The translations under genes and the position numbers were made by a program. Shown here one piece after another: positions 1,576 through 18,760 of a DNA stretch of 64,000 bases; within the stretch, counting starts at the first letter, position 1, and every line of letters starts with the position of its first letter. Origin of the DNA: Bacteroidetes bacterium QS_9_68_14 (GTDB taxonomy: Bacteria > Bacteroidota > Rhodothermia > Rhodothermales > Salinibacteraceae); NCBI GenBank assembly GCA_003022535.1, contig PXTT01000039.1:948-64947 (forward strand), written 5' to 3'. Under the pieces are notes generated by a model. The model was not told the DNA's origin and ran no database searches. It worked only from the letters and a program-made list of their open reading frames with translations.

Positions 1576-2706
1576 CTACGCGGGTACCAATTCGTTGAGG
1601 AGGTGCGCGTTAGTGGGGCTGTTGCGCACGTGCTTCAGCAGGGCCTGCATCGCCTCGACGGGCGGGCGTGAGTTGAGCGCGCGAAAGAGCTGGTGGTGCT
1701 TCTTGAGACCGTCACCGATGAGACGCTCCTCGTTGCGCGTGCCGCTGTCGCGCACGTTGATGGCCGGGTAGATGCGCTTGTTGGCCAGCTCGCGGTCCAG
1801 GACGATCTCGGAGTTGCCCGTGCCCTTGAACTCCTCGAAGATCACGTCGTCCATCTTCGAGCCCGTCTCGATCAGGGCCGTAGCGACGATCGTCAGGCTG
1901 CCGCCGCCCTCGATGTTGCGCGCAGAGCCGAAGATCTTGCGCGGCTGCTGGAGGGCCTTCGCGTCGAGCCCGCCGCTGAGGGTGCGCCCGCTTCCGCCCA
2001 GAAAGAGGTTGAACGTGCGCCCCAGGCGCGTAATGGAGTCGAGCAAGAGCACCACGTCGCGGCCCATTTCCACGCGGCGCTTGGCGTATTCGAGCGCCAT
2101 CGTCGAGACGCGCACGTGGTTGTCCTCGCCCCGGTCGTTCGAGGAGGCGAAGACGCGCGCCTCGGTGGAGCGGCGAAAGTCGGTCACTTCCTCGGGCCGT
2201 TCGTCGACCAGGAGCGCCACGAGGTCCACCTCGTCGTGGTTCTGGGTGACGCCGGCGGCGATCTTTTTGAGCAGGACCGTCTTGCCGGCACGCGGCGGCG
2301 AGACGATCAGTGCGCGTTGCCCCTTGCCCAGCGGGGCCACGAGGTCTACGACGCGCATGTCCACGTCATCGGGGCCGGTGATGAGGTTGAGCTTGTCCTC
2401 GGGGTAGATGATGTCGCCGCCGTCGAAGTCCTCCAGCTCGGCCCATTCCTGCGGCTCCATGCCCATGACTTTGTAGATCCAGTCCACCTGCATCCCGTCC
2501 TTGCGCCCGGGCTTCAGGGAGCTTTCGATCTCGACCCCGTCCCGCAGGTTGAACTTGCGGATGTGCGGAGGCGGCATGAAGGGGTCTTCATCCGTCTTGG
2601 GGAGGTCAGGCTGGAGCTGGCGCATGAAGCCGAACTTCTTGTCGCCGATCAGCTCCAGCATTCCGCGAAACGGGTCGTCCTGTCGTGACGAGTCGTTCTG
2701 TGACAT
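1576..2706 (-). CDS. rho: Transcription termination factor Rho (376 aa, N-terminally short)
   Basis: OB-fold/CSD-like region ([15 protein letters not shown]), Walker A ([10 protein letters not shown]) and the conserved C-terminal ATPase blocks ([33 protein letters not shown]) are present. ATG at 2704-2706 is preceded by a pyrimidine-rich, G-poor leader, with an in-frame TAG five codons upstream. Confidence 0.9.
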
Positions 2707-3304
2707 GAAAAAGCAGGGGCGGGGCTAGGTGAGAGAGAACGTCCTCCGGGAAGAAAAGCGCCCGCACCCGCGCAGACGGCGCGCTGGCGGTGGAGCGTCG
2801 CAAAGAAGCGGTAGGGAACGGCGCAGGAGAAGGCGCGCCACGAGGCACCAGACGGGCGCCCCGGTTGCAAAAACGAAAGCGTATGGAGTCAATCGCCTCG
2901 GGAGCGAACTTCGCCGGGGCGGGAGACGAACGGATACTGCAGCACTCTGCGCCGGGAAAAGCCAGGCCGCGCGTTGCCGTGGACGACGCTGACGGGCAGG
3001 AGCAGCAACACGCGGGGATCTGCCAGAGCGCCCCCGGCCCTTCAAACGGCCGTGAAGCGGAAATGCCGTGGAGCAACGCGGCGGCGTGCGGTCGATAACC
3101 CTCCGCACAGGACACAATCCACCGTGCTCTCTTGCAGAGCCTGCCCGTAGCGTTTGGGCGAGTGGCAATCACACTTCACAGCCAGCAACGCCCCATCACG
3201 GCGATGGTTTCGATAAGATCGAGCACGGGTGATTTCGCGGGGTGGGAGGCGCAGAGCACTCTGAGATCGGGGGACGCCTTCAATCTCTCGGGCTGGATCG
3301 TCGG

Positions 3305-6507: not shown

Positions 6508-7554
6508 ATGCCCCCCGACCGCCCCGACGCAGGAAATGTCACGATCCACGACGTGGCCGAGGAAGCGGGCGTCTCTGCCGCAACGGTATCGCGCTTCCTC
6601 AACGGCTCTGGCAAGATCGCCGAGCCCACCGCCGAGCGCGTGCGCGCCGCCGTCGAGGCGCTTCGCTACCGGCCCGACCGTACGGCGCGCACCCTCGCCG
6701 AGCCGGACCGGCGCGTGCTGGCGGTGGCCCTCCCCAGCTTCATCACGCCCTTTCACAACGCCCTGCTCAAAGGCATTCGCTTCGAGCTGCGCGGATTCGA
6801 GTGCGACCTGCTTTTGCGCGACCTCGGCTCCGAGGATTCCGCCGGGGAGCTGGCGCGCTTTCTGCAGCACGGCGCCGTGGACGGCCTGCTCGTCGTGGGA
6901 GGGCTGCGCGAGACGGCCCGCCGGGAATTGCGGCACTGGCGCGCGCCGGCCGTGGTCATCGGGGCCGCGGTCGACGGGATCGACTCGTTTTTCTGGGACG
7001 ATGCCGCCGGCGGGCGCCTCGCCGCCGAGCACCTGCTGGCAGCCGGCCACCGGCGCATCGGGGTCATCCAGAGCGCGCGCTCAGAGCTGGCGCCTCAGGA
7101 GCAACGCATGGCCGGGTACCGCGAGGCCCTCGAAGCAGCCGGCGTAGCCTACGACCCGGCCCTCACCGCGAGCGGGCAGGCGCAGAAGCACGCCGGCTTC
7201 AGCGAGGAGGCCGGCCGCGAGGCCATGACCCGCCTGCTCGATGCCACACCGCCGGTGACGGCCGTCTTCGCCCTGAGCGACGTGCACGCAATGGGCGCCT
7301 GGGCCGCCCTGCGCGACGCCGGCCGGCGCGTCCCCCAGGACGTCGCCCTCGTCGGGTACGACGACGTGAAAACCAGCCAGTTCGTCGGGCTCACGAGCGT
7401 CTCGCAAGACATGCACCGCGTGGGGGAGCGCGCCACCGCCTGCCTGCTGGATCGGCTGCGCGGCGGGCCGCCGGAGGAGCCCCGCTCGGTGCGCATCGAG
7501 CCGGCGCTCCACCCGCGCCGCTCCAGCGACGTCTCGCAGGAGGCGCCCTCCTGA
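6508..7554 (+). CDS. LacI-family transcriptional regulator
   Basis: N-terminal HTH (VTIHDVAEEAGVSAATVSRFLNG...RVRAAVEALRYRPDRTARTLA) followed by a periplasmic-binding-protein-like sugar-binding core. Confidence 0.85.
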   Translation: MPPDRPDAGNVTIHDVAEEAGVSAATVSRFLNGSGKIAEPTAERVRAAVEALRYRPDRTARTLAEPDRRVLAVALPSFITPFHNALLKGIRFELRGFECDLLLRDLGSEDSAGELARFLQHGAVDGLLVVGGLRETARRELRHWRAPAVVIGAAVDGIDSFFWDDAAGGRLAAEHLLAAGHRRIGVIQSARSELAPQEQRMAGYREALEAAGVAYDPALTASGQAQKHAGFSEEAGREAMTRLLDATPPVTAVFALSDVHAMGAWAALRDAGRRVPQDVALVGYDDVKTSQFVGLTSVSQDMHRVGERATACLLDRLRGGPPEEPRSVRIEPALHPRRSSDVSQEAPS

Positions 7555-7598: not shown

Positions 7599-8681
7599 CT
7601 ACTCGGGCAGGCGTGCTTCCAGAAAGGCCAGCGTGGCCCGCTCGGCAGGGTCGAGGCCGCCGGGAGCCTGCCCGTTCGGCGCGTCGAGGTGCGCGCGGTA
7701 GGCCGGCAGAAAATCGCCTGCGCGGTAGCCTTCCGGGATCGCCGGGTGAATGTAGTGCTCGCGGCAGACGGCCGGCGTGTTGCCCAGCCTCTCGGCCACG
7801 GCCTTGACGACCTCCACCCACACGCCGTCGGCATCGTCTTCTTCGTGCCGCGCGGCGGGGCCACGCGCGTCGAGCTGGCGCGCCGCCTCAACGGTGCCGC
7901 CCCACGTGCGAAACTGCTTGGCCGTGAAATCCTCGCCGGTCGTGGCCTTCAGGTAGGCGTTGACGTGCCCGGCCTTTACGTCGTGCTTGGCGCCCTCCTC
8001 GTCGAAGAAGGCGAAGATCTCGTAGCCGGGCACCTCGCAACAGGCCTGCACGACCTCCGCGAGGGCGGGGTCTTCGAGGGCGACTTCGTGCTCGCGCCCG
8101 CTCTTGCCCGTAAAGCAGAACGTGCAGGCCCCGTCTTCATCGAAGCAGGCGTGGCGCCGCCGCATCGTCGTGAGGCCGAAGGAGTCGTTTTCGCGGGCGT
8201 ACTCGGCCCCGCCGATGCGAATGAGCGTGTCGTCGAGCAGGCGCGCTACCAGCGCCAGCACCTTCACGCGCGGCAGGCCGTCCCTCCCGAGGTCGTGCGC
8301 GGCGCGGGCGCGGATCTCCGGGAGCGCGCGGCCGAAGGCGACGAGGTGGGCGAACTTCGTGCGGCGGCGCGCCTCCTGCCACTCCGGATGGTAGCGGTAC
8401 TGCTTGCGCCCCGCTTCGTCGCGCCCGGTGGCCTGCAAGTGCCCGCGCGGCGCAGGGCAGATCCACACATCCGTCCAAGCAGGCGGGATGGCAAGCTGCT
8501 CGATGCGCTCGCGCCGCGGGTCGCCTCGCGCGATGCGTTCCCCCTGCGGCGTGAAGTACGTGAAGCCTGCCCCCTGCTTCTGCCGCCGGATGCCCGGCTC
8601 GTCGTCGGTGACGTAGACCAGCCCGGCGCGCTCGGCGGAGACTTGGGGGTCGAGGGCGTCCTCGTCCGATACTTCGCTCAT
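7599..8681 (-). CDS. DNA topoisomerase IB (poxvirus-like bacterial TopIB)
   Basis: LAIPPAWTDVWICPAPRGHLQATGRDEAGRKQYRYHPEW and FTGKSGREHEV match TopIB. The C-terminal CREHYIHP is in the expected position of the catalytic tyrosine. Confidence 0.8.
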   Translation of the reverse strand: MSEVSDEDALDPQVSAERAGLVYVTDDEPGIRRQKQGAGFTYFTPQGERIARGDPRRERIEQLAIPPAWTDVWICPAPRGHLQATGRDEAGRKQYRYHPEWQEARRRTKFAHLVAFGRALPEIRARAAHDLGRDGLPRVKVLALVARLLDDTLIRIGGAEYARENDSFGLTTMRRRHACFDEDGACTFCFTGKSGREHEVALEDPALAEVVQACCEVPGYEIFAFFDEEGAKHDVKAGHVNAYLKATTGEDFTAKQFRTWGGTVEAARQLDARGPAARHEEDDADGVWVEVVKAVAERLGNTPAVCREHYIHPAIPEGYRAGDFLPAYRAHLDAPNGQAPGGLDPAERATLAFLEARLPE

Positions 8682-8792
8682 GTCACTCGCGTTGCTCGCT
8701 CAAGTCACTCGCGTTACCCACTCGAAAGAGAGGGGGAGGGGCGTCCTGCCGAAAAACACCCGCCTTTCTCTCCTTCTCCTTCGCAGCCCTTC

Positions 8793-9581
8793 CTACCCCC
8801 ATGCCGGTGGGGCCAGCGCATCGGGCGCGATGATGCGCTCCCCACGCGCCAGGTCGAAGATCGCGCTCATTTCCTCCTCCGACAGCTCGAAGTCGAAAAT
8901 CTCGAAGTTGGCGCGGCGGTGCTCGGCAGAGGACGCTTTGGGGACGGCAGCCACGCGGTCCTGCTGCACCTGCCAGCGAAGGGCCACCTGCGCGGCCGTC
9001 TTGCCGTGCGCTTCACCAATGGCCTGGAGGGTTTCGTCGGCGGGCACGTCTCCGCGCGCAAGCGGGCTGTACGAGGTGAAGAGCAAGTCGTGCGAGCGGC
9101 ACATCCCGATCAGCTCGTGCTGCGAGAGGAACGGGTGGTACTCCACCTGCAACGCGAAGAGCGGGGCGCGCTCCATCGCTGCCTCCAGAAGGTCGGGGGT
9201 GAAGTTGCTCACGCCCAAGCGACGCGCGCGGCCTTCGTCTTGCTGGGCCAAGAGCGCCTCCATCGTGGCGTTCATCTCGAAGCCGCCAGCGGGCCAGTGG
9301 ATGTACAGAAGGTCCACGTAGTCCACGCCCAGCTTCTCGAGGCTGCGCTCCACGCTGCGCGGCAGGGACTCGGGGTCGAGGTTGGACGGCCAGACTTTCG
9401 TGACCAAGAAGATATCCTCGCGGGCCACGTCGCTTTCGGCCAGCGCCTCGCCGACCTCGGCTTCGTTCTCGTAGGCTTGCGCCGTGTCGATGTGGCGGTA
9501 TCCGATCTCGAGCGCGTCGGAAACCGCCTTGCGGCAGCCGTCGCCGGTGACTTGCCAGGTGCCCAGGCCCAGCGCGGGCAC
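8793..9581 (-). CDS. Aldo/keto reductase (2,5-diketo-D-gluconate reductase-like)
   Basis: PALGLGTWQ...[14 protein letters not shown]...LVTKVW...LYIHWP...SNF...SYSPL pattern. GTG start at 9579-9581 with an in-frame TAA ten codons upstream. Confidence 0.85.
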   Translation of the reverse strand: MPALGLGTWQVTGDGCRKAVSDALEIGYRHIDTAQAYENEAEVGEALAESDVAREDIFLVTKVWPSNLDPESLPRSVERSLEKLGVDYVDLLYIHWPAGGFEMNATMEALLAQQDEGRARRLGVSNFTPDLLEAAMERAPLFALQVEYHPFLSQHELIGMCRSHDLLFTSYSPLARGDVPADETLQAIGEAHGKTAAQVALRWQVQQDRVAAVPKASSAEHRRANFEIFDFELSEEEMSAIFDLARGERIIAPDALAPPAWG

Positions 9582-9618
9582 TTCTTCGCCCTGTACGGTC
9601 CAGCCCCGTTACGAACGG
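9444..9618. repeat. Direct repeat copy 1 (5' leader plus first ~46 codons of the intact aldo/keto reductase gene)
   Basis: Aligns with 11136-11333 with 4 substitutions and one 23-nt indel. Confidence 0.9.
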
Positions 9619-9731
9619 TCGCGCTGCTCGCGGCGGGGAGGCATCCGACGCCTCAATGAACCTGCATTGAAGGGCAGCCGTGTAGAGAAACGTTCTTCAA
9701 ACCCTTACCCAGAAAGCTTTCGAGATGCCGT

Positions 9732-11012
9732 ATGGCGTACCGCAGCAACGCGGCGAGCGATGCCGAGCCCTCGCGGAGCGAGGCCCCGCTCCGCGAGAAG
9801 CAAGAAACGTCCCGGCCGTCCCCCCGTGAAGTCGCCGGCATTCTCGAAAGCATTACCGACGCCTTTTTCGCCCTCGACGAGGACTGGCGTTTCACTTACC
9901 TCAACACGCACGCCGAGGAGCTGCTGGGCCGCCGCCGCGAGGAACTGCTGGGCGAGAGCGTGTGGGACGCATTCCCCGAGGCGGTGGGATCGACCTTTGA
10001 GGAGCAGTACCGCCGCGCTGCCGAGCAACAGGTGTCCGTGCAGTTCGAAGAGTGGTATCCTCCGCTCGAGACCTGGTTTGAGGTGGAGGCCTACCCACGC
10101 GCTCAGGGCGGCCTCACCATTTTCTTCAACGACATCAGCGAGCGGAAGCAACGTGAGCAGGCCCTTCGAGCGGCCAAAGAGCAGGCGCAGCAGGCAAAGG
10201 AAAAAGCCGAAGCCGCCAGCCGGGCCAAAAGCCGCTTCCTGACCAACATGAGCCACGAACTGCGCACGCCCCTGAACGCCATCATCGGATACAGCGAAAT
10301 GTATCTGGAGGAGCCGGCGGACTGGGAGCGCAATCAGATCAAGGAGGACATGCGCAGCATCCACCGCGCCGGCCACCAGTTGCTCGCCCACTTCGACGAC
10401 CTTCTGCACTTGGCGAAAGCGGAGGGCGGCAAGCTCAATCTCGCCCCCGGGACGTTCTCCTTTCCCCCCCTGGTCGACGAGGTCGTCGAAAAGATACAAT
10501 CGACGATGGAGGAGAACGGCAATGCATTGCACGTCGAAGGCGCTAAAGGCGTCGGGCAGATCCGCACCGACCGCTTGAAGCTGCGCCAGATCTTGTACAA
10601 TCTCCTCTCCAACGCCGCCAAATACACCCAAGAAGGCGATGTCATGCTGCGGGCGCGCATCGAGCACCGGCTCGGCCTCGAAAGCGTGCCCCGGACAGGC
10701 GTGGCCCTGGAGGAGCGCACGGAGGGGGAGGAGTCCTACTGCACTCCCTCGGCCGCGCGCCGCATGCTCGTCCTCGAGGTGTCCGACACCGGAATAGGCA
10801 TGACCGAAGAAGAGCAGGAATGGATCTTCGGAGCCTTCGGGCGCAGCGAGGAAAACGCGGGGAGCCGGGGCATCGGACTGGGCCTGAGCCTCACGCGCGA
10901 CCTATGCAAAATGCTCGGAGGCCGGATCGGGGTCGAGAGCGAGAAAGGCGTCGGCTCGACCTTTACGGTTCGCGTTCCGGTGGAGGTGATGCTTCCGTCC
11001 CCGCGCCTCTGA
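9732..11012 (+). CDS. Cytoplasmic PAS-domain sensor histidine kinase (no adjacent response regulator)
   Basis: PAS (ILESITDAFFALDEDWRFTYLN...ISERKQRE), coiled linker, HisKA H-box (FLTNMSHELRTPLNAIIGYSEM) and HATPase_c N/G boxes (LLSNAAKYT, DTGIGM, GIGLGLSL). Confidence 0.85.
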   Translation: MAYRSNAASDAEPSRSEAPLREKQETSRPSPREVAGILESITDAFFALDEDWRFTYLNTHAEELLGRRREELLGESVWDAFPEAVGSTFEEQYRRAAEQQVSVQFEEWYPPLETWFEVEAYPRAQGGLTIFFNDISERKQREQALRAAKEQAQQAKEKAEAASRAKSRFLTNMSHELRTPLNAIIGYSEMYLEEPADWERNQIKEDMRSIHRAGHQLLAHFDDLLHLAKAEGGKLNLAPGTFSFPPLVDEVVEKIQSTMEENGNALHVEGAKGVGQIRTDRLKLRQILYNLLSNAAKYTQEGDVMLRARIEHRLGLESVPRTGVALEERTEGEESYCTPSAARRMLVLEVSDTGIGMTEEEQEWIFGAFGRSEENAGSRGIGLGLSLTRDLCKMLGGRIGVESEKGVGSTFTVRVPVEVMLPSPRL

Positions 11013-11105
11013 CGCACGCGGCCTCTTCCCGAGCCGGCGGTTCTCGGCCCGTCGGCGACCGTCGCGGGTCACCCGCGAACATCTTTCAAACGCCCCTTCG
11101 CTTGC

Positions 11106-11333
11106 TCACGGCGGCGCCTCGAAGCCACGCCGGATCGCCTCGCCGACCTCATCCTCGTTCTCGTAGGCTTGCGCCGTGTCGATGTGGCGGTAGCCGATCT
11201 CGAGCGCGTCGGAAACCGCCTTGCGGCAGCCGTCGCCGGTGACTTGCCAGGTGCCCAGGCCCAGCGCGGGCACTTCTTCGCCCTGTACGGTCGGAGGCGG
11301 TTCGGTAGAGAACAGCAGCCCCGTTACGAACGG
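11106..11333 (-). pseudogene. Orphan 5' fragment of the aldo/keto reductase gene (repeat copy 2) fused to a 34-bp patch from the glycoside-hydrolase-like gene
   Basis: The minus strand reads ...[61 protein letters not shown]-stop. The first part duplicates the AKR N-terminus. The tail [11 protein letters not shown] equals the C-terminal region of the 12246..13478 protein. Confidence 0.7.
11136..11333. repeat. Direct repeat copy 2 (contains an extra 23 nt at 11293-11315)
   Basis: Near-identical to 9444-9618. Confidence 0.9.
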
Positions 11334-11430
11334 CTGCGTTGCCGACGCAGCGTGGCCCGCGTTTTCCGACGCCAGCGCAGCGAGAGACCACGGTCCACGG
11401 CCCGCCGTCTGCCGTCCTCATCTGCCGTCC

Positions 11431-12201
11431 TCAAAGGTACGCCCCGCCGCTGGCGAGAATCAGGTTGCCCGTCACCCAGCGCGCTTCCTCGCGCGCCAGG
11501 AACGCCGCGACCGGCGCCACGTCCGCCGGCCGCCCCACACGGCCAAACACCGACAACTTCGCGTCCTCGGCGTCCTGCGCCTCCGCGCCGATCTGCTCTT
11601 CGGGCTTGGTCGGCCCCGGCATCACGCCGTTGACGGTGATCCCGCGCTCGCCAACCTCTTTGGCGAGGGTCTGCACCATCGCATTGGCGGCGGCCTTCGA
11701 GGCGGAGTACGCGCCTAGCCGCGCGGGCATCTGCCGCGTGACCGACGAGGTGACGGCCACGATGCGCCCGCCCCGGGGCAGCCGCCGCGCCGCCTCGCGC
11801 AGCACGTAGAAGCTGCCACGCGCGTTAATGTCCATGAACTGCGCGAGGTCCTCCGGCTCGGTGTCGGCGAAGGGAATCGGGTGTCCCTGCGCGCCGGCGT
11901 TATGCACGAGCACCGTCGGCGCCGCGCCGAAGTGGTCGGCCGCCTCGTCGAAGAGGCGCTCCGCCTCGGCAGAGTCGGAGAGGTCGGCCCGGAGGGCGGT
12001 CGGCGCAGGCGCATCGCCGTCTTCCGGCATGGCCGCGCGGAGGGCTGCCAGCGCGTCCTCAGCGTCCCCTGAGCTGCCGTGGTAGCCGATGGCCACGCCC
12101 GCTCCATCGGACGCCAGTCGCTCGGCAATGCCGCGCCCGATGTTGCGCGAGCCACCGGTGACGAGCGCGTTTTTTCCGGAAAGCGGGAGCGCGGCAGGCA
12201 T
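11431..12201 (-). CDS. SDR-family oxidoreductase (FabG-like)
   Basis: Rossmann motif GKNALVTGGSRNIGRGIA, NAG, catalytic YSASKAA, and PGP. ATG at 12199-12201 lies within ORF 11431..12300. Confidence 0.8.
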   Translation of the reverse strand: MPAALPLSGKNALVTGGSRNIGRGIAERLASDGAGVAIGYHGSSGDAEDALAALRAAMPEDGDAPAPTALRADLSDSAEAERLFDEAADHFGAAPTVLVHNAGAQGHPIPFADTEPEDLAQFMDINARGSFYVLREAARRLPRGGRIVAVTSSVTRQMPARLGAYSASKAAANAMVQTLAKEVGERGITVNGVMPGPTKPEEQIGAEAQDAEDAKLSVFGRVGRPADVAPVAAFLAREEARWVTGNLILASGGAYL

Positions 12202-12245
12202 GGGGGGCGTGGCGGCGTAGGCAAAGACAGGCGGGCGCGACGCTT

Positions 12246-13478
12246 TCACACACGCCCCGCCGGGCCGCCGGGTTCGGGCGCGGTCCATGCGGAGGCGCAT
12301 GGTGCGGCGTGGCCCGCTCGCTTGCCGCGGCGGCCTCTTCGTCTTGGCAACAGCTCATCAGCGGGCGGCGGCGCCTCGAAGCCACGCCGGATCGCCTCGG
12401 CGGCCGGGCCACGCGGCATGAAGCCGGTCGCGTGGCGGCGCTCGCGGGCGACCGGCCACTTCCAGACCGCCGCCCCCGCAATCCACGGGCGCGGCCACAC
12501 CTCCGCAAAGAAGGCCTCGTAGAGCCGCGCCTGCAGTCTGGGGGCGGGCGCGTGGTGCTCCTCAGGCCAGCGCCACGGCTCGGCGGCCGCGGAGCGGGCG
12601 TTACGGTAGCCCAGTTCGGTGAAGAAGATCGGCTTGCCGGCCCGGGCACTCACGCGGCGCAGCGCCCGGCGGTGCGGCTGCCACCCGTCGCGCAGGGCGC
12701 GCGTGGCCGGCTCCTCCTGCTCGGCGAGCGGGAAGTACCCCTGCACGCCAACGTAGTCGAGCGCGTCCCAGAAGGGGACGCTTTCGTACTCCTCGTGCCA
12801 GTTGGCCGCGTAGGTCAGCTTGCCCGCATATGCCGCGCGCACGTCGGCGATGAGCTTTCTCCAGAAGCCCGGGCGCGCGCTGGTCGTGCCGGCCAGCTCC
12901 GTCCCGATGACCAGAAGGTCTGCCTCCACCGCCTCGGCCAGGCGCGCGTAGTGCAGCAGGAAGCGCCGGTACTGCTGCTGCCACGCCTTCCAATCTTGTT
13001 CGCGCTCGAAGGCAATGTCGAGGCGGGAGCCGCCCTCGCGGCCCACCCAGAGGTGCGGCTTGAGAACGAGGCCCATCCCCAGCGAATCAGCGCGGCGCGC
13101 GAGCGCCCGGATGCCGGCATCCGTCTCGCTGTACCAGCCGTCCTCCCCGTCGCCGCCGGTGTGCATCTGGATGCGCGTCGCCTGCGGGCCGCGCTGAAAG
13201 CCGAAGGAGACGAGCGCTAGGTGCGTGGCCCCGAGCCGCGCGACGGCGCGGAGCGTCGAGTCGGGCGGGCGGTCGACCGCGTCGAGGGTGACGGCCCGGA
13301 TGCGTGGCGCTTCCGCCTCGGGCGGCGCCGAGGACGCGCTGCTGCCGCCGGGGGGATCGGCGGCGCACCCGCTCCCGAGAAACACTACGGGCATCAGCAA
13401 CGCCGCCAGCAGCAACGCGACCGGCGGCGAAGCCTCCGGCAGCAACGGGGCATCTCTTGCGCGTGGCGTCTTTAGCAC
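12246..13478 (-). CDS. Lipoprotein with a glycoside-hydrolase-like TIM-barrel domain (GH113-like; family assignment tentative)
   Basis: Lipobox VFLGSGC. Conserved-looking blocks are LVLKPHLW, LLVIGTELAG, LTYAANW, YVGVQGYFPL and IFFTELGY, giving two candidate catalytic Glu in TELxG contexts. Confidence 0.55.
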   Translation of the reverse strand: MLKTPRARDAPLLPEASPPVALLLAALLMPVVFLGSGCAADPPGGSSASSAPPEAEAPRIRAVTLDAVDRPPDSTLRAVARLGATHLALVSFGFQRGPQATRIQMHTGGDGEDGWYSETDAGIRALARRADSLGMGLVLKPHLWVGREGGSRLDIAFEREQDWKAWQQQYRRFLLHYARLAEAVEADLLVIGTELAGTTSARPGFWRKLIADVRAAYAGKLTYAANWHEEYESVPFWDALDYVGVQGYFPLAEQEEPATRALRDGWQPHRRALRRVSARAGKPIFFTELGYRNARSAAAEPWRWPEEHHAPAPRLQARLYEAFFAEVWPRPWIAGAAVWKWPVARERRHATGFMPRGPAAEAIRRGFEAPPPADELLPRRRGRRGKRAGHAAPCASAWTAPEPGGPAGRV

Positions 13479-13788
13479 GGCAGGGTGGGAGCAGGGCGTT
13501 GCTCAGGAAGGCGCGGGCGGGCCGGAGGTCACGGCCCCTGTGGCGCTCGCGTCCCTACGCCCGCCGCAGGCGACGGTCGCGCAACGCCCCCCATCCACGA
13601 CCTACCATCTGCTATGCCTCGCGGCGAGCACGGCAAGCGAACCAAGCGAGCCCGCTATCTCGCAGATTGTTTCGCACGTACGCAAGACCCTACTTGCAAA
13701 ACGGTGGCGCGTCGGCGAGGTTGTAAGCGCTAGTTTGCGTTCCGGTCTCCGAAGCGCACCCGTTCTTTCCTGCTTCCCCCGCCGTCTC

Positions 13789-15015
13789 GTGTCGCCGCGC
13801 CTCCGCCTTGCCGCCCCTGCCGCGCTGCTGGCGCTCCTTCTCTGGGGCGCTGCGCTCGCGCGCGGCCAATCGCCGGCCACGAGGGGCGAGGCGGCGCTTC
13901 GCGTCCGCGCAGCCGGGGACGTGATGCTGGGCACGGACTTCCCCTCCCCCCAGCACCTGCCGCCCGATAGTGCCCTGTGCGAAGACCAAACAGCCCCTGC
14001 CTCTTCTCACACAGAAGTAGCCCCGGGGTGCGCCGAGAACGTCCTCACCGCCGTGGCGCCGCTGCTGCGGGACGCGGACCTCACGTTCGTCAACCTCGAA
14101 GGCCCGCTCGCAGATACCACGGCCACGACCGACAAGTGCGATCCTGGCGAGAACTGCTACGCCTTTCGGACGCCGCCACGCTACGGGCGCTTTCTGGAGA
14201 GCGCGGGCATAGACGCCGTCTCCATCGCCAACAACCACGCGACCGACTTCGGCGCAGAGGGGCAACGTCAAACCATCCAGGCGCTCGATGAGCTGGGAAT
14301 CGCGTGGTCGGGGCCGCCGGGCACGACAGCCACGCTCCGGGTCCAGGGGCGGCGCGTCGGGCTGGTGGCCTTTCACACCAGCCGTAGCGGCAACTACCTC
14401 AACGACCACGACGCGGCGGCGGCGCTCGTGGACTCGCTCGCCGGCCGCTCTGACCTCACGCTCGTCTCCTTCCACGGCGGGGCCGAGGGCGCGGACGCGC
14501 TTCACGTGCCCGATACGATGGAGACCTTCTACGGTGAAAAAAGAGGCCACCTGCGCGCCTTCGCCCGCCGCGTCGTGGACGCTGGCGCGGATCTCGTGCT
14601 GGGCCACGGGCCGCACGTGCCGCGCGGGATGGAGCTGTACCGCGGGCGCTTGGTGGCCTACTCGCTGGGCAACTTTGCCACCTACGGACGCTTTAACTTG
14701 AGCGGCCCGCTGGGCCTGGGGCTGGTGCTGGAGGCGCGCCTCGGGGCGGACGGGCGCTTCCGCGGCGGGCGGCTGCTCTCCACGCGCCAGCTCGGCGAAG
14801 GCGTCCCGGTGCCCGACGAGTGCCGCCGGGAGGCCGCCCGGCTGGTGCGCCGCCTCTCCGCCGAGGACTTTTCCAACCCCGACCTGCGGATCTTGCCCGG
14901 CGGGCGTCTCTTCAACCGCCGCGCCGTGCGCCCGCTCGCGCCGGTGCCGCCGACGTGGCCCGTGCCGCCCCGCGAGCCCGCGCCCGTCGCCGTACTCACG
15001 CCGCACGGGGACTGA
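13789..15015 (+). CDS. CapA/PgsA-type poly-gamma-glutamate capsule synthesis family protein (metallophosphatase fold)
   Basis: Signal-like N-terminus, then GDVMLGT, DLTFVNLEGPL, VSIANNHATDFG, VSFHGGAEG, LVLGHGPHVPRG and YSLGNF. GTG 13789 is chosen as start; the first ~188 codons of ORF 13225..15015 do not look coding. Confidence 0.8.
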   Translation: MSPRLRLAAPAALLALLLWGAALARGQSPATRGEAALRVRAAGDVMLGTDFPSPQHLPPDSALCEDQTAPASSHTEVAPGCAENVLTAVAPLLRDADLTFVNLEGPLADTTATTDKCDPGENCYAFRTPPRYGRFLESAGIDAVSIANNHATDFGAEGQRQTIQALDELGIAWSGPPGTTATLRVQGRRVGLVAFHTSRSGNYLNDHDAAAALVDSLAGRSDLTLVSFHGGAEGADALHVPDTMETFYGEKRGHLRAFARRVVDAGADLVLGHGPHVPRGMELYRGRLVAYSLGNFATYGRFNLSGPLGLGLVLEARLGADGRFRGGRLLSTRQLGEGVPVPDECRREAARLVRRLSAEDFSNPDLRILPGGRLFNRRAVRPLAPVPPTWPVPPREPAPVAVLTPHGD

Positions 15016-15119
15016 TTGGAGCACGCGTCGGGGTGGCCGGGGCCGCGCGTTCTTCTCAGGCATGGCACATCGCGTTCCCACGTTTTCGTGCCCCTCTCCT
15101 TTCCTCTCCCTCGAAAGAA

Positions 15120-16310
15120 GTGCACGACGTAGCTATCATTGGCGGCGGCATCGTGGGGCTGGCCACCGCCTACCACCTGTCGCGGCAGTACCCTGAGCAG
15201 TCGGTCGTCGTTCTGGAAAAAGAAGACCGCGTGGCTGCGCACCAGACCGGGCGCAACAGCGGCGTCATCCACTCGGGCATCTACTACACCCCCGGCTCGC
15301 TGAAGGCGAAAAACTGCCGCGAGGGCAAGCGCCGCCTCCAGCGCTTCTGCGCGGAGCGCGACGTGGACTACGAGATGTGCGGCAAGGTCATCGTCGCCGC
15401 CGACGAAAGCGAGATCCCCGGCCTGCGGGAGATCGAGCGCAAGGGGCGCGAAAACGAAATCGAGCACGAACGCATCGGCCCCGGGCGGCTGACAGAAATC
15501 GAGCCGTACGTGCGCGGCGTCGAGGCGCTGCGCGTGCCGCGCGCCGGCATCGTGGACTACACGGGCATGGCCGAGGCCATGGCCGAGGCCGTCCGAGAGC
15601 GCGGACACGCGGTGCGTACCTCGGCCGGCGTGGCCGGGATGGACGTGCGCCCCGAGGGCGCGGTGCTGGAGACAGAAGCCGGCCCCGCCCAGGCACGCTA
15701 CGTCGTCAACTGCGGGGGCCTCTACGCCGACCGCCTCGCCGCCATGAGCGGCGCGGAGCCACGTGTACAGGTCGTGCCCTTTCGCGGGGAGTACTACGAG
15801 CTCACGCCCGGGGCGCGCCACCTGTGCAACGGCCTGATCTACCCGGTGCCCGACCCGGCCTTTCCCTTTTTAGGCGTCCATTTTACCAAAACCGTCGAGG
15901 GCGGCGTGGAATGCGGCCCCAGCGCGGTCTTGGCCTTCGCGCGCCAGGGGTACCGCTTCGGCGACGTCCACTGGCGCGAGCTGGCAGAGATCCTATCGTT
16001 CCCGGGCTTCTGGCGCCTGGCCATGCGCCACTGGAAGAAGGGCCTCCTGGAAATCGCGCAGTCGCTCTCCACGCGCTACTACCTGCGCGCGCTACGCCAC
16101 CTCATTCCTACGATCGAAAAGAGCGACCTCCGACCCTCCTCCGCAGGCGTGCGGGCGCAGGCGCTCACGCCCGGCGGCGAGCTGGTGGACGACTTTCTCA
16201 TCACCGAGACCGAGCGCGTGGTCAACGTGCTTAACGCCGCCTCGCCGGCAGCCACCGCGTCGCTGTCGGTGGGCTCGGTGATCGGGGAGCGGCTGGCGCG
16301 GCGGTTTTGA
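15120..16310 (+). CDS. lhgO: L-2-hydroxyglutarate oxidase-type FAD-dependent oxidoreductase
   Basis: DVAIIGGGIVGLATAYHL ... HQTGRNSGVIHSGIYYTPGSLKA is the LhgO-type FAD motif. A GTG start at 15120 gives ~396 aa. Confidence 0.8.
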   Translation: MHDVAIIGGGIVGLATAYHLSRQYPEQSVVVLEKEDRVAAHQTGRNSGVIHSGIYYTPGSLKAKNCREGKRRLQRFCAERDVDYEMCGKVIVAADESEIPGLREIERKGRENEIEHERIGPGRLTEIEPYVRGVEALRVPRAGIVDYTGMAEAMAEAVRERGHAVRTSAGVAGMDVRPEGAVLETEAGPAQARYVVNCGGLYADRLAAMSGAEPRVQVVPFRGEYYELTPGARHLCNGLIYPVPDPAFPFLGVHFTKTVEGGVECGPSAVLAFARQGYRFGDVHWRELAEILSFPGFWRLAMRHWKKGLLEIAQSLSTRYYLRALRHLIPTIEKSDLRPSSAGVRAQALTPGGELVDDFLITETERVVNVLNAASPAATASLSVGSVIGERLARRF

Positions 16311-16760: not shown

Positions 16761-17765
16761 TCAGTACCCCATGCCGGTGGTGTCGCGGCGCCGCTGGACC
16801 TCCGCTTGGTTGGAGGCAGCCTCCTGCGCGAGCCGGTCGAGCGTCCGCGCAGGGCGGGCCAGGCCCGTCGTGTCGGCGAGTTGGTGGCGGCGCGCCAGGT
16901 AGGCCGGCTCGTTGTAGGCTACGAAGGCGTTGCCTTCATTTCCCTCCCAGACGAGCATCTTCTGCGGCAGGTCGATGCCCATCGTGGGCGCTTTTCGCAT
17001 GAGCGGCGTGCCGGCCCGGGGGTTGCCGAAGACCAGCAGGCGCGTGGGACGCAGGCTGTCGCCGGCAGGCGCATTCTGCGCGTGGTCCATCTGCGCCATG
17101 ACCGAGAGCGGCGGGCGGGACCGCACGGCTTCGCGCAGACGGCGGTACGTCTTGCCAGGCCCGAAGTCGCTCGTCTCGATGGCCAGCCCGGCCCCGGCGC
17201 GGATGGAGTCGGCGTTGAAGGCGCTGGTGTCGGGCACGCGCCCAGCGGCCTGCTCGGCGAGGGAGGCGAGCGCGTCGCCCATCTGCCGAAGCGACCCGCC
17301 GACCCCCTCGAAGTCGTGGCGCGTGGCAAGGTAGGCGGGCACGTTGTAGGTGATGCGCGTGGAGTCGTCCCGGCCTTCCCACACGAGCATTTTTTGCGGG
17401 AGGTCGATGCCGGCGGTCTGCACTCCTTGCATCAGGGGCGTGCCGAGGGCCGGGTTGCCGAACATCAGCAGGCGCGTGGGGCGCAGGCTGTCGCCCGAGG
17501 CGTTCTGCGCGTGGTTCACGTCGGCCACGAGCGTGGCCGGGCTCGCCTGGATCGCGCTTTTGAGCTGCTCGGTGACGGCCGCGACGCTCCGGCCGGTCGT
17601 CCCCGTCACCAGCCCCTCGCCGGGCGGCGGCACGCCCGGGGCGCGCGTCGTGTCGGCCGCCGTGTCGGAGCGCCCCATGCTCAGCAGGCCCTCGCAGCCG
17701 CCCGCCAGCAACGCCCCCGCCGCCATCGCGGCGACCAGGAGCAGGCCGGGAAAGCGTCGAGACAT
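16761..17765 (-). CDS. Lipoprotein with two tandem DUF302 domains
   Basis: Lipobox LLAGGC. The block LRPTRLL(M/V)FGNP..GTPLM......IDLPQKMLVWEG...(I/V).YN.PAYLA.RH occurs twice. Confidence 0.75.
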   Translation of the reverse strand: MSRRFPGLLLVAAMAAGALLAGGCEGLLSMGRSDTAADTTRAPGVPPPGEGLVTGTTGRSVAAVTEQLKSAIQASPATLVADVNHAQNASGDSLRPTRLLMFGNPALGTPLMQGVQTAGIDLPQKMLVWEGRDDSTRITYNVPAYLATRHDFEGVGGSLRQMGDALASLAEQAAGRVPDTSAFNADSIRAGAGLAIETSDFGPGKTYRRLREAVRSRPPLSVMAQMDHAQNAPAGDSLRPTRLLVFGNPRAGTPLMRKAPTMGIDLPQKMLVWEGNEGNAFVAYNEPAYLARRHQLADTTGLARPARTLDRLAQEAASNQAEVQRRRDTTGMGY

Positions 17766-17959: not shown

Positions 17960-18760
17960 ATGACCCTCGACCTCTCCGGCCAGCGCGCGCTCGTCACCGG
18001 CGCGAGCCGCGGCATCGGGCGGGCCATCGCCGGGGCGCTGGGGGCCGCTGGCGCGCGCGTGGCCGTCCACTACCACCGCCGCGCAGAGGCTGCCCAGGCG
18101 GTCGCCAGGGCGGCGGGGAACGGCGCCCGGCCCGTTCAGGCCGACCTCGCGGAGAGCGGCGCGGCCGGGGCGCTCTTCGACGAGGTCGTCGAGGCGCTCG
18201 GCGGCGTGGACGTGCTGGTCAACAACGCCGGCGTGGCGCGCGCACTCCCGTTCGCGCCAGGCGACAATGCCGGCGAGAGCGACGCGGGCGAAAACGGTTT
18301 CACCGAAGCCGACTGGCGTGCCGGCTGGCAGCAGACGATGGCCGTGAACCTGCGCGCCCCCGAGGCGCTCTGCCGCCGCGCCGTGCCGCACTTTCGAGGA
18401 AATGGGGGCGGGCGCATCATCAACGTGGCCTCGCGGGCGGCCTTCCGCGGCGACACGCCCGACTACCTGGCCTACGCCGCCTCGAAGGCCGGGCTCGTAG
18501 CGCTCACGCGCTCGGTGGCGCGCGCTTTCGGGGAAGACGGGATCTGTGCCTTCGCCCTTGCGCCCGGCTTCACGCGCACCGACATGGCGCAGGACTTCAT
18601 CGACGCCTACGGCGAGGCGCACGCCCTGGAGGGCAACGCGCTGGGCCGCCTCACCGAGCCGGAGGACCTCGCCCCGACGGCCGTGCTCCTCGCCAGCGGC
18701 CACGCCGACCACGCCACCGGTACGACCATCGACCTCAACGCCGCCAGCTACGTGCACTGA
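17960..18760 (+). CDS. SDR-family oxidoreductase
   Basis: GQRALVTGASRGIGRAIA, NNAG, catalytic YAASKAG, and PGFTRTDM. ATG at 17960 lies within ORF 17786..18760. Confidence 0.8.
   Translation: MTLDLSGQRALVTGASRGIGRAIAGALGAAGARVAVHYHRRAEAAQAVARAAGNGARPVQADLAESGAAGALFDEVVEALGGVDVLVNNAGVARALPFAPGDNAGESDAGENGFTEADWRAGWQQTMAVNLRAPEALCRRAVPHFRGNGGGRIINVASRAAFRGDTPDYLAYAASKAGLVALTRSVARAFGEDGICAFALAPGFTRTDMAQDFIDAYGEAHALEGNALGRLTEPEDLAPTAVLLASGHADHATGTTIDLNAASYVH

Follow-up and report, generated by a model that had tools for sequence, protein, structure and literature searches.

Introduction

The join points of duplications have been described as using 0–5 bp of sequence identity (PMC9997567, citing Reams & Neidle 2004). 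In the cat-gene amplifications of Acinetobacter baylyi, as outlined in PMC9997567, the distal end of a segment meets its proximal start over a few bp of identity, with flanking direct repeats. We analyzed a comparable locus in a 64-kb stretch of DNA, referred to below as the window, in which codon ~54 of an aldo/keto reductase (AKR) gene stands for the distal end and the 3′ end of a GH113 glycoside hydrolase gene for the proximal start. The join is novel, runs from end to start in parental order and orientation (the parts named b and g′ below are contiguous around the kinase gene in the relative L013), and involves little homology (7 bp). It departs from the A. baylyi case, as far as that case is described in PMC9997567, in that 7 bp exceed the quoted 0–5 bp, no selection for amplification is evident, and the copies are unequal in content: a histidine kinase gene accompanies the leader L1 in one, and a foreign SDR gene the leader L2 (79% identity) in the other.

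Joins of 3–10 bp are reported for homology-facilitated illegitimate recombination (HFIR) (de Vries & Wackernagel 2002, PMC122324, summarized in PMC6382021). The locus may resemble HFIR in natural transformation, as presented in that summary, in that foreign DNA (the SDR gene, its flanks, and L2) would be bordered by native sequence at one end and by a GC-rich join in the 3–10 bp range at the other. The microhomology join is present and the SDR gene and L2 are foreign to the lineage; the homologous anchor is putative, and so is the direction in which the event ran. Unlike the events summarized there, both flanks of the foreign DNA in the window (g and b2) are native-like, and recipient DNA is duplicated, not deleted.

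Campbell-type integration also leaves a segment between direct repeats of the region of homology, as is seen here. However, the empty site that it predicts is absent from the relatives, in which the kinase gene occurs without repeats, and the window contains a second nested repeat and a microhomology join that a simple Campbell event does not need. Finally, the evolutionary unit proposed for a tandem paralogue cluster in PMC2568036 consists, in the terms used there, of the 3′ region of an ORF, the intergenic region, and the 5′ region of the next ORF. The duplicated unit in the window (GH113 3′ end, intergenic site, and AKR 5′ end) has the same composition, but that source deals with a tandem paralogue family within one species, whereas two unrelated genes and a single duplication are involved here.

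Organization of the Locus

The following features were delimited:

8793–9581, minus strand: AKR gene (Aldo_ket_red, Pfam 8.7e-61), ORF of 262 aa from an internal GTG
9444–9627, minus strand: repeat copy 1, made of the AKR 5′ coding part b1 (9444–9600) and the native leader remnant L1 (9601–9627)
9628–9731, plus strand: region y, 5′ of the kinase gene, collinear with kinase-type relatives
9732–11012, plus strand: PAS-HisKA-HATPase_c histidine kinase gene (Pfam), soluble protein of 426 aa
11013–11105, no strand: region x, the convergent kinase/GH113 intergenic region, native as in kinase-type relatives
11106–11142, minus strand: g′, a detached copy of the last 11 GH113 codons, then the native TGA stop
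11106–11273, minus strand: chimeric mini-ORF of 55 aa from a GTG, with the 44 N-terminal AKR codons and 11 C-terminal GH113 codons in frame
11136–11142, no strand: 7-bp microhomology CGCCTCG (CGAGGCG on the coding strand), where AKR copy 2 meets the GH113 fragment
11136–11342, minus strand: repeat copy 2, made of b2 (11136–11292) and the diverged leader remnants L2 (11293–11342)
11143–12399, no strand: gained block of 1,257 bp absent from kinase-type relatives, equally placed at 11109–12365
11343–11430, minus strand: flank v, downstream of the SDR gene, with no match in the contigs L001–L017 or in the rest of the window
11431–12201, minus strand: SDR gene (adh_short_C2, Pfam 8.8e-49), 256 aa
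12202–12365, minus strand: flank u, upstream of the SDR gene, its first 117 nt now read as a 39-codon GH113 tail
12246–13478, minus strand: GH113 gene (Pfam GH113 1.2e-50), ORF of 410 aa that runs into the SDR upstream flank
12366–12399, minus strand: g, the resident copy of the last GH113 codons, stop codon lost

This gene content (AKR, PAS/HisKA/HATPase_c kinase, orphan AKR start, and SDR) is that proposed in the original prediction, the enzymatic activities being those predicted for the proteins. The AKR gene had been described as intact, with copy 1 as its 5′ end. Copy 1 is indeed the 5′ end of the gene, but the gene is not intact: the nearest homologues have 271–272 aa and the N-terminus MIYQTVQGEE, and the ORF in the window starts 10 codons short. 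Native codons 5–10 are still found at 9582–9600 without a start codon, and the native start codon is missing from both AKR copies in the window. The Pfam match covers the Aldo_ket_red domain, but a full-length DkgA/DkgB-like AKR with native N-terminus and start is not encoded.

The kinase, with matches to PAS_4 (4e-17), HisKA (1.8e-16), and HATPase_c (4.1e-23) and the H-box SHELRTPLN legible in its translation, is a HisKA-family sensor kinase. Its gene had been expected to be visibly lower in GC than its surroundings; the GC content (0.64) is lower, but the difference is modest (GC3 of 0.82 versus 0.875–0.90 in the neighbours). As also anticipated, no response regulator was found among the genes adjacent to it. 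A type IB topoisomerase (TopIB) gene at 7599–8681 adjoins the AKR gene, and it does so in all relatives, whether they have the rearrangement or not.

The direct repeat of the AKR 5′ end is real, and the four substitutions and the 23-nt indel (11293–11315) previously noted in it were reproduced by sequence comparison. Its coding parts, 9444–9600 and 11136–11292, are 157 nt long, 97% identical, and 1,692 nt apart, with substitutions at 9459/11151, 9460/11152, 9462/11154, and 9501/11193. The 23 additional nt (11293–11315) belong to copy 2, and the adjoining leader remnants (9601–9627 and 11316–11342) are 89% identical over 27 nt, the first 18 nt being the same. A repeat core of 56 nt occurs exactly twice in the window and never in 100 shuffles, and the repeat is the sole long near-identical one in the 64 kb. 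Compared with the kinase-type contigs L013, L014, and L098, a stretch of ~101 nt that contains the ATG is absent from copy 1 between 9600 and 9601; compared with L002, a contig of a second assembly, a stretch of 89 nt that likewise contains the ATG is absent from copy 2 at 11291/11292.

A second direct repeat, exact over 34 nt (11109–11142 and 12366–12399, 0 expected by chance), corresponds to the last GH113 codons, abuts AKR copy 2, and brackets the 1,257-bp block. This block contains the SDR gene with its flanks, the diverged AKR leader, and the 5′ copy 2 of AKR. Copy 2 is fused in frame to the detached GH113 fragment at the GC-rich 7-bp microhomology, which links AKR codon ~54 (native numbering) to the 11th-from-last GH113 codon; the same CGAGGCG motif is found in the AKR gene at 9446–9452 and in the GH113 gene at 12393–12399. 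The GH113 gene of L013 ends at the same place as g′, which is followed by the native TGA and native downstream sequence. A comparison of C-termini shows that the resident GH113 gene has lost its stop codon and gained 39 codons; its ORF is 410 aa long versus 351–372 aa in relatives, and the SDR gene sits 42 nt downstream of this extended ORF on the same strand. The 5-nt TGAGC in the SDR upstream flank was considered as a remnant of the old GH113 stop region and is too short to serve as evidence.

The original prediction had overlooked both the exact GH113 repeat of 34 nt and the join at the 7-bp microhomology, and it is these two features that define the event.

The possibility that the conserved AKR leader contains a known RNA element was also rejected: the Rfam search of this leader gave no match, no sigma-70 promoter-like site was detected in it, and its three terminator-like sites were no excess over the shuffle mean of 2.5.

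Kinase-Only and Empty States in Relatives

The three kinase-type relatives (L013, L014, and L098) are metagenome contigs from three JGI samples. In each of them, the kinase gene lies in the opposite orientation between AKR and GH113 genes that point the same way, the AKR 5′ end and the GH113 3′ end are each present once, the SDR gene is absent, and the sequence matches the window minus 11143–12363. In L013, positions 1739–3285 align to 9601–11142 of the window at 92.5% identity, ending at 3285, and the alignment to 12364–16000 begins at 3250; the 36-nt overlap is the single copy of g. The kinase orthologue is 90% identical and found at the same position in L013 and L014, and the corresponding region of L098 is 92.5% identical at the nucleotide level. 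Identity between the window and L013 is even, from 90 to 99%, across the AKR/TopIB, kinase, and GH113 sides, and the divergence of the kinase gene from L013 tracks that of the flanking genes. The presence of kinase-only relatives and the even divergence across the locus speak against the kinase gene being a recent insert.

More distant relatives, L004–L009 and L018 (MAG Bacteroidetes bacterium QS_8_68_28), were directly observed in an empty state, with GH113, AKR, and TopIB genes in the same orientation and a spacer of ~112 nt between the first two, which is the leader present in both copies of the window. The homology between copies 1 and 2 ends where the kinase-type and empty-type loci lose homology, just past the GH113 stop codon.

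The original prediction expected related genomes to show SDR-AKR adjacency without the kinase gene. Instead, L013, L014, and L098 have the kinase gene without the SDR gene, and SDR-AKR adjacency was absent from all relatives examined, including more distant SDR relatives. Scans of the metagenome_contigs collection for the junction and for the leader returned 0 matches each and carry little weight: L012 and L013 contain the leader pattern, yet the first of the two scans did not pick it up, so this collection evidently lacks the relevant samples. Exact look-ups of the AKR and TopIB proteins of the window gave no match.

The SDR appears to be a lineage-specific newcomer, as judged from sequence comparisons: outside the window strain, no relative exceeds 74% amino acid identity, and SDR relatives are found in other contexts. 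The best of them (74%) sits between lytB and a gene read as tgt, neither of which is present in the 64-kb window, and an ancestral SDR site within the window was rejected on this ground. A plasmid origin of the SDR block was also set aside, as the only gene-family matches were weak and partial, reaching no more than 56% coverage at 66% identity.

Repeat Edges in Two Assemblies

Two contigs of the separately deposited assembly ERZ27230160, L001 and L002, match the window at 100% identity, and their mutual overlap is exactly k = 119. Both novel junctions, b2/g′ and g/u, were observed directly inside contigs of this assembly. The window and ERZ27230160 differ solely at the two repeat edges. The ERZ27230160 contigs keep 89 nt of the native leader and AKR start of copy 2 that are missing from the window; with these 89 nt, the AKR repeat would lengthen if copy 1 were intact, copy 1 being read for 45 nt only. 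The window contig is the only one to carry the linkage across the AKR repeat, and the sister assembly differs from it at exactly that place. The 101-nt loss in copy 1 may be either a real deletion or a local misassembly, and the repeat edges of the public MAG probably reflect a local assembly problem, or else a real double deletion.

Origin of the Rearrangement

The arrangement probably arose when an illegitimate crossover joined two tandem units, each spanning the GH113 3′ end through the AKR 5′ end and bearing a different cassette. Among related strains, the stretch that separates the GH113 stop codon from the conserved AKR leader is variable, being empty in some and occupied by an inverted PAS kinase gene in others. 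The window lineage would have begun in the kinase state and then gained a second unit, from GH113 3′ end to AKR 5′ end, whose variable site holds the foreign SDR gene and a strongly diverged AKR leader. With the two units placed in tandem by an illegitimate crossover at the 7-bp CGAGGCG, the structure would be the join point of a ~1.8-kb tandem duplication whose copies bear different cassettes. Equivalently, it may be viewed as a merger of the SDR-type and kinase-type alleles of one locus, through HFIR during DNA uptake or through unequal exchange. Since an SDR-only allele (GH113-SDR-AKR) was not found in any collection searched, one parent of this proposed merger is hypothetical.

The repeats are to be read as the scar of an ordinary illegitimate recombination, and the kinase gene probably not as a newly arrived mobile cassette. 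That they are not transposase target duplications had been recognized in the original prediction, and so had a duplication by template switching or illegitimate joining, which fits; the Campbell-type insertion of the kinase gene, offered with it, is poorly supported, the gene being already present in three close relatives. The block is a mosaic in which b2 is close to b1, g is identical to g′, L2 is 79% identical to its counterparts, and the SDR has no relative above 74%. Moreover, b2 and b1 share two derived bases of the window lineage, while L2, only 79% identical to kinase-type leaders, is as distant from them as empty-type leaders are, and L1 and L2 are ~79–83% alike. Because three close relatives are kinase-only, the SDR lacks close relatives, and divergence is even between the kinase gene and its flanks, we infer that the kinase gene was resident first and that the SDR block, together with AKR copy 2, arrived later. 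The geometry itself is symmetrical and gives no indication of which cassette came last. Against the two-unit explanation, three of the four differences between b1 and b2 lie within 20 nt of the join.

Alternative Explanations

A Campbell-type event, in which one homologous crossover within the 5′ part of AKR brought a kinase segment into a GH113-SDR-AKR chromosome, is rather unlikely. The segment would have carried a GH113 3′ end, the kinase gene, and an AKR leader and 5′ end, either on a circle closed at b/g′ or on linear DNA of a donor that had a tandem duplication. The symmetrical geometry, with the kinase gene bracketed by AKR repeats, is compatible with such an event. Near-identical b1 and b2 with distant L1 and L2 would also fit if an SDR-type chromosome had received the kinase segment, since crossing over close to the start of AKR would account in one step for the shared derived bases and for leaders ~79–83% alike. 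However, no relative displays SDR-AKR adjacency, the kinase-only arrangement is found in three samples, the kinase gene has diverged from L013 as much as its flanks, as under vertical descent, and the elements foreign to the lineage are the SDR gene and L2.

Clustered substitutions accompany error-prone break-induced synthesis, and three of them lie beside the microhomology join. Together with the exact 34-nt flanking duplication, they are in keeping with one-step template switching (FoSTeS/MMBIR-like), or with insertion of a fragment from a paralogous SDR-AKR2 locus into the GH113 3′ end with a 34-bp target duplication. Both scenarios are distinctly unlikely: the end of the homology between copies 2 and 1 matches the limit between kinase-type and empty-type loci, as expected of an allele and not of a paralogous locus, and the 64-kb window contains no second AKR gene.

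An assembly artefact, by which the repeat was misresolved or SDR-type and kinase-type strains were stitched together, so that the arrangement exists on no single molecule, is improbable. The window does come from a MAG contig (72,849 nt), the sister assembly broke exactly at the AKR repeat, and the window departs from it only at the repeat edges (89 nt missing, and 101 nt of the copy 1 leader relative to L013). Nevertheless, the b2/g′ and g/u junctions are novel and expected in neither parental strain, both are contained within k = 119 contigs of the second assembly, and a strain bubble is unable to make a 7-bp-microhomology join.

It is highly improbable that the gap between the GH113 stop and the AKR leader is a hotspot of cassette exchange, at which the kinase and SDR genes entered the same position in opposite orientations and were stacked instead of swapped. 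If true, this would imply a site-directed mechanism, conceivably involving TopIB, whose gene always neighbours AKR, and not chance plus a lack of other neutral space. A transposon or integron was rejected: a scan of seven neighbouring proteins found neither a transposase nor an integrase, and terminal inverted repeats were not reported; likewise, the only Pfam-matched gene of the block is the SDR gene and its 34-nt flanking repeat is a fragment of coding sequence, unlike an insertion sequence or transposon. The locus reveals no new kind of mobile element or recombination system.

Scarcely credible is an old tandem duplication whose copies diverged in place while gene conversion homogenized their coding parts, the kinase-only relatives arising when the 34-nt repeats recombined and deleted what lies between them. 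Collapse of the window type to the kinase-only type via g and g′ is feasible, and L1 and L2 are strongly diverged, but g equals g′ and b1 resembles b2 although b2 and g′ are under no selection, all relatives lack the SDR gene, two short tracts would have to be converted repeatedly while the leader was spared, and the shared derived bases already point to b2 being copied after the split from L013.

Consequences of the Join

Under the two-unit explanation, the locus would be unstable, owing to its two nested pairs of direct repeats (34 nt in GH113 and ~190 nt in AKR), and the repeats left by the join can resolve to either single-cassette state. Recombination at the 34-nt repeats would restore the kinase-only state, with a junction in which g is followed by TGAGCAAGCG. 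Recombination at the AKR repeats would delete the kinase gene and leave GH113-SDR-AKR, with a junction in which GAGGAT of copy 2 is followed by GAGGTCGGCGAGGCGCTGGCC.

The locus offers a clean natural example, from an uncultured halophile-like Bacteroidetes lineage, of accessory genes accumulating at an intergenic site that varies among strains. A single microhomology join appears to have stacked two alternative cassettes and truncated or extended three neighbouring reading frames. These should be annotated accordingly: the AKR is N-terminally truncated and without its native start, the 39-codon tail of GH113 is artefactual, and the 55-aa ORF is chimeric. From the native ATG, which is kept in the ERZ27230160 contigs, the chimeric ORF would be 65 aa long by manual count.

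The AKR direct repeat and its gene context

The direct repeat of the 5' end of the aldo/keto reductase (AKR) gene reported in the original prediction is real: positions 9444-9600 (copy 1) and 11136-11292 (copy 2) are 97% identical over 157 nt. The four substitutions were located at 9459, 9460, 9462, and 9501, and the 23-nt indel corresponds to extra bases in copy 2 (11293-11315), beyond which 9601-9627 and 11316-11342 match at 89%. The window holds two occurrences of a 56-nt core of the repeat, 100 shuffles gave none, and a scan of the 64-kb window retrieved no other long near-identical repeat. The gene content described earlier (AKR, kinase, orphan AKR start, and short-chain dehydrogenase/reductase, SDR) was likewise recovered.

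Genes of the AKR locus in the window
6508-7554, plus strand, LacI
7599-8681, minus strand, type IB topoisomerase (TopIB)
8793-9581, minus strand, AKR
9732-11012, plus strand, soluble PAS-HisKA-HATPase_c kinase
11106-11273, minus strand, orphan AKR start (55 aa)
11431-12201, minus strand, SDR
12246-13478, minus strand, glycoside hydrolase GH113

The GC content of the kinase gene is indeed lower, as claimed, but the difference is modest (GC3 of 0.82 versus 0.875-0.90 in its neighbours). The HATPase_c match covers 139 residues for a 111-position profile, pointing to some 30 inserted residues (RIEHRLGLESVPRTGVALEERTEGEESYCTPSAARR; window 10650-10760, residues ~307-342) within the ATP-binding domain.

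Four types of locus in relatives

Four locus types were found. Among the closest matches, AKR homologues are 271-272 aa long with the N-terminus MIYQTVQGEE. In the empty type, GH113, AKR, and TopIB follow one another in the same direction, with LacI beyond TopIB and a spacer of about 112 nt; it was seen in six JGI metagenome contigs (L004-L009) and in L018, from the MAG Bacteroidetes bacterium QS_8_68_28, and its AKR is 83% identical. MAGs with QS_ names presumably come from the Atacama salt-crust study. In the kinase type, sampled in three JGI samples (L013, L014, and L098), an oppositely oriented kinase separates AKR and TopIB from GH113. These loci are 96.8%, 92.5%, and 92.8% identical to the window over 7961-9600, 9601-11142, and 12364-16000, respectively; they have a single GH113 3' end, and neither the SDR nor a second AKR 5' end was present in them. 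The NAPRTase type (NAPRTase, AKR, and TopIB in one direction) occurs in relatives that are 77% identical, and the window type was seen in the window itself and, beyond it, solely in two contigs (L001 and L002) of ENA assembly ERZ27230160. The nearest named relative of this uncultured lineage is a Bacteroidetes MAG.

At the start of TopIB, 22 nt are duplicated in tandem (8674-8717), the upstream copy (8696-8717) having TTG where the start-codon copy (8674-8695) has ATG. The duplication is common to L013, L003, and L098, of the kinase type, and missing from the empty-type loci L004 and L018.

The leader (TCGTAACGGGGCTG...) corresponds to native sequence upstream of AKR, is conserved in all locus types, and begins directly past the GH113 stop in the empty type. 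A block of it (ACGCATCGTAACGGGGCTGTTCTCCGGCGAAC ... GAGGTATA) precedes AKR in all relatives, whether the upstream gene is GH113, kinase, SDR, or NAPRTase, and probably acts as promoter or operator of AKR. An Rfam search with this block gave no match.

Positions of the conserved block upstream of AKR
L004, 9902-9928
L010, 6903-6929
L013, 1726-1752
Window, 9601-9627 and 11316-11342

A microhomology join between AKR and GH113

A second exact repeat had been overlooked: 11109-11142 is identical to 12366-12399 (34 nt, 0 expected by chance). It adjoins the left edge of AKR copy 2 and encodes the final 11 residues of GH113. The detached GH113 end (11109-11142) is followed by TGA (11106-11108) and then by the sequence that relatives have beyond their GH113 stop codon. 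In the resident GH113 this stop codon is gone, and the frame continues for 39 codons into the upstream flank of the SDR gene (12246-12365; tail PADELLPRRRGRRGKRAG...), ending 42 nt ahead of the SDR ATG; the resulting 410-aa gene call (351-372 aa in relatives) is a by-product of the rearrangement.

On the coding strand, CGAGGCG is common to AKR (9446-9452) and GH113 (12393-12399), and the junction sits within this 7-bp microhomology. Since it is, by chance, in frame, the orphan ORF is a chimera of 44 AKR codons and 11 GH113 codons.

Before the TGA, the detached end has two CCG proline codons (11109-11117) and L013 three (3250-3261); the resident copy reads CCG CCG CCC. The pattern resembles triplet slippage within a short stretch of CCG. 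Of the four substitutions between the AKR copies, three lie together no more than 20 nt from the join, with copy 2 carrying the derived base; these three may be repair-associated.

The gained block

The window carries 1,257 bp that the kinase type lacks (11143-12399, equally 11109-12365). This stretch is bracketed by the 34-nt repeat and reads, on the minus (coding) strand, SDR upstream flank, SDR, SDR downstream flank, copy 2 leader, and copy 2 AKR coding sequence. Sequence comparison indicates that this block is a mosaic. Its AKR coding part differs from copy 1 at 4 of 157 sites, and both copies share two bases derived relative to L003, L013, and L004 (GACGGC, CGCAAG). The copy 2 leader is only 79% identical to kinase-type leaders, as far from them as the empty-type leaders are. 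Neither SDR flank had a match among loci L001-L017 or in the rest of the window, and no SDR relative above 74% aa identity was found outside this strain; the neighbours of that 74% relative are lytB and a gene read as tgt, and a 59% relative has a different context again. This make-up points to a segment of about 1.1 kb, foreign to the lineage, with native sequence on either side. The foreign DNA brings its own version of the AKR leader and has its boundary where the kinase cassette starts in the kinase type, implying that this locus also has an SDR-type allele, as yet unsampled, with the predicted order GH113-SDR-AKR.

Directly 3' of the SDR stop lies a 13-nt tandem direct repeat (GGACGGCAGATGA / GGACGGCAGACGG, minus strand; 11404-11430), followed, just ahead of the leader, by a hairpin with a 7-bp stem (GCTGCGT-CGGCA-ACGCAGC). 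Elsewhere in the window, a 122-nt direct repeat (16942-17063 and 17374-17495; 79% identity, 432 nt apart) lies inside one gene, near a second, distant SDR paralogue whose 5' region (17972-18098) is 71% complementary to 12057-12183.

Junctions and repeat edges

L001 and L002 match window 9601-11292 and 11292-13509 at 100% identity, and each holds one novel junction internally. They share an overlap of exactly 119 nt, which equals the k given in their contig names. As a mixture of two strains cannot generate a microhomology join, both novel junctions exist in DNA. ERZ27230160 breaks at the AKR repeat; linkage across it is provided by the window contig (a 72,849-nt NCBI MAG contig).

The sole differences between the window and these contigs are at the two repeat edges (9600/9601 and 11291/11292). 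Copy 2 lacks 89 nt present in L002 (region of L002 2235-2306), and copy 1 lacks 101 nt of L013, L014, and L098 (L013 1638-1738), a stretch at least partly present in ERZ27230160, which keeps at least 45 nt of the copy 1 leader at the left end of L001. Both missing stretches start from the identical AKR base, after codon 4, and in both window copies the native ATG is absent together with the larger part of the conserved leader. On either side of the stretch missing from copy 2 stands an imperfect direct repeat (CTTCTTCGCCCT / CTTCTTCCCCT), which would be consistent with replication slippage; no microhomology was seen at the edges of the stretch missing from copy 1. The window's strain may carry a pair of real deletions, which would silence the two AKR starts, or the MAG contig may contain a local misassembly where the repeat ends.

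Origin of the structure

The structure works like a scar of tandem duplication or of homology-facilitated illegitimate recombination (HFIR). The AKR-to-GH113 join, made through a short GC-rich microhomology, would be the expected product of a tandem duplication in a kinase-type chromosome, with the GH113 3' end and the AKR 5' end as the limits of the duplicated segment. Reported joins have 0-5 bp of identity for duplications (PMC9997567) and 3-10 bp for HFIR (PMC6382021).

Because the two copies carry different cassettes, a merger of SDR-type and kinase-type alleles is the simplest account. It may have occurred by unequal or illegitimate exchange between the two alleles, by HFIR acting on incoming DNA, or by homologous cassette replacement in one copy of an earlier duplication. 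The divergence of the kinase from L013 tracks that of its flanks and the kinase-only state was sampled three times, so the kinase is, on these comparisons, most likely the older resident. The mirror history, in which the kinase segment entered an SDR-type chromosome with a crossover near the AKR start, as originally modelled, would account in one step for near-identical AKR coding copies alongside unlike leaders, and we consider it improbable. The Campbell-type integration of a kinase cassette had predicted SDR-AKR adjacency in relatives; these showed GH113-AKR, AKR-kinase-GH113, or NAPRTase-AKR instead, and this integration was therefore discarded. That the boundary between GH113 stop and AKR leader is a site-directed cassette hotspot appears very unlikely, and a transposon or integron was rejected as the identity of the structure.

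The locus is expected to be unstable: a crossover in the 34-nt repeats would bring back the kinase-only state, and one in the AKR repeats (exact over 99 nt in the window) would remove 1,692 bp, including the kinase.
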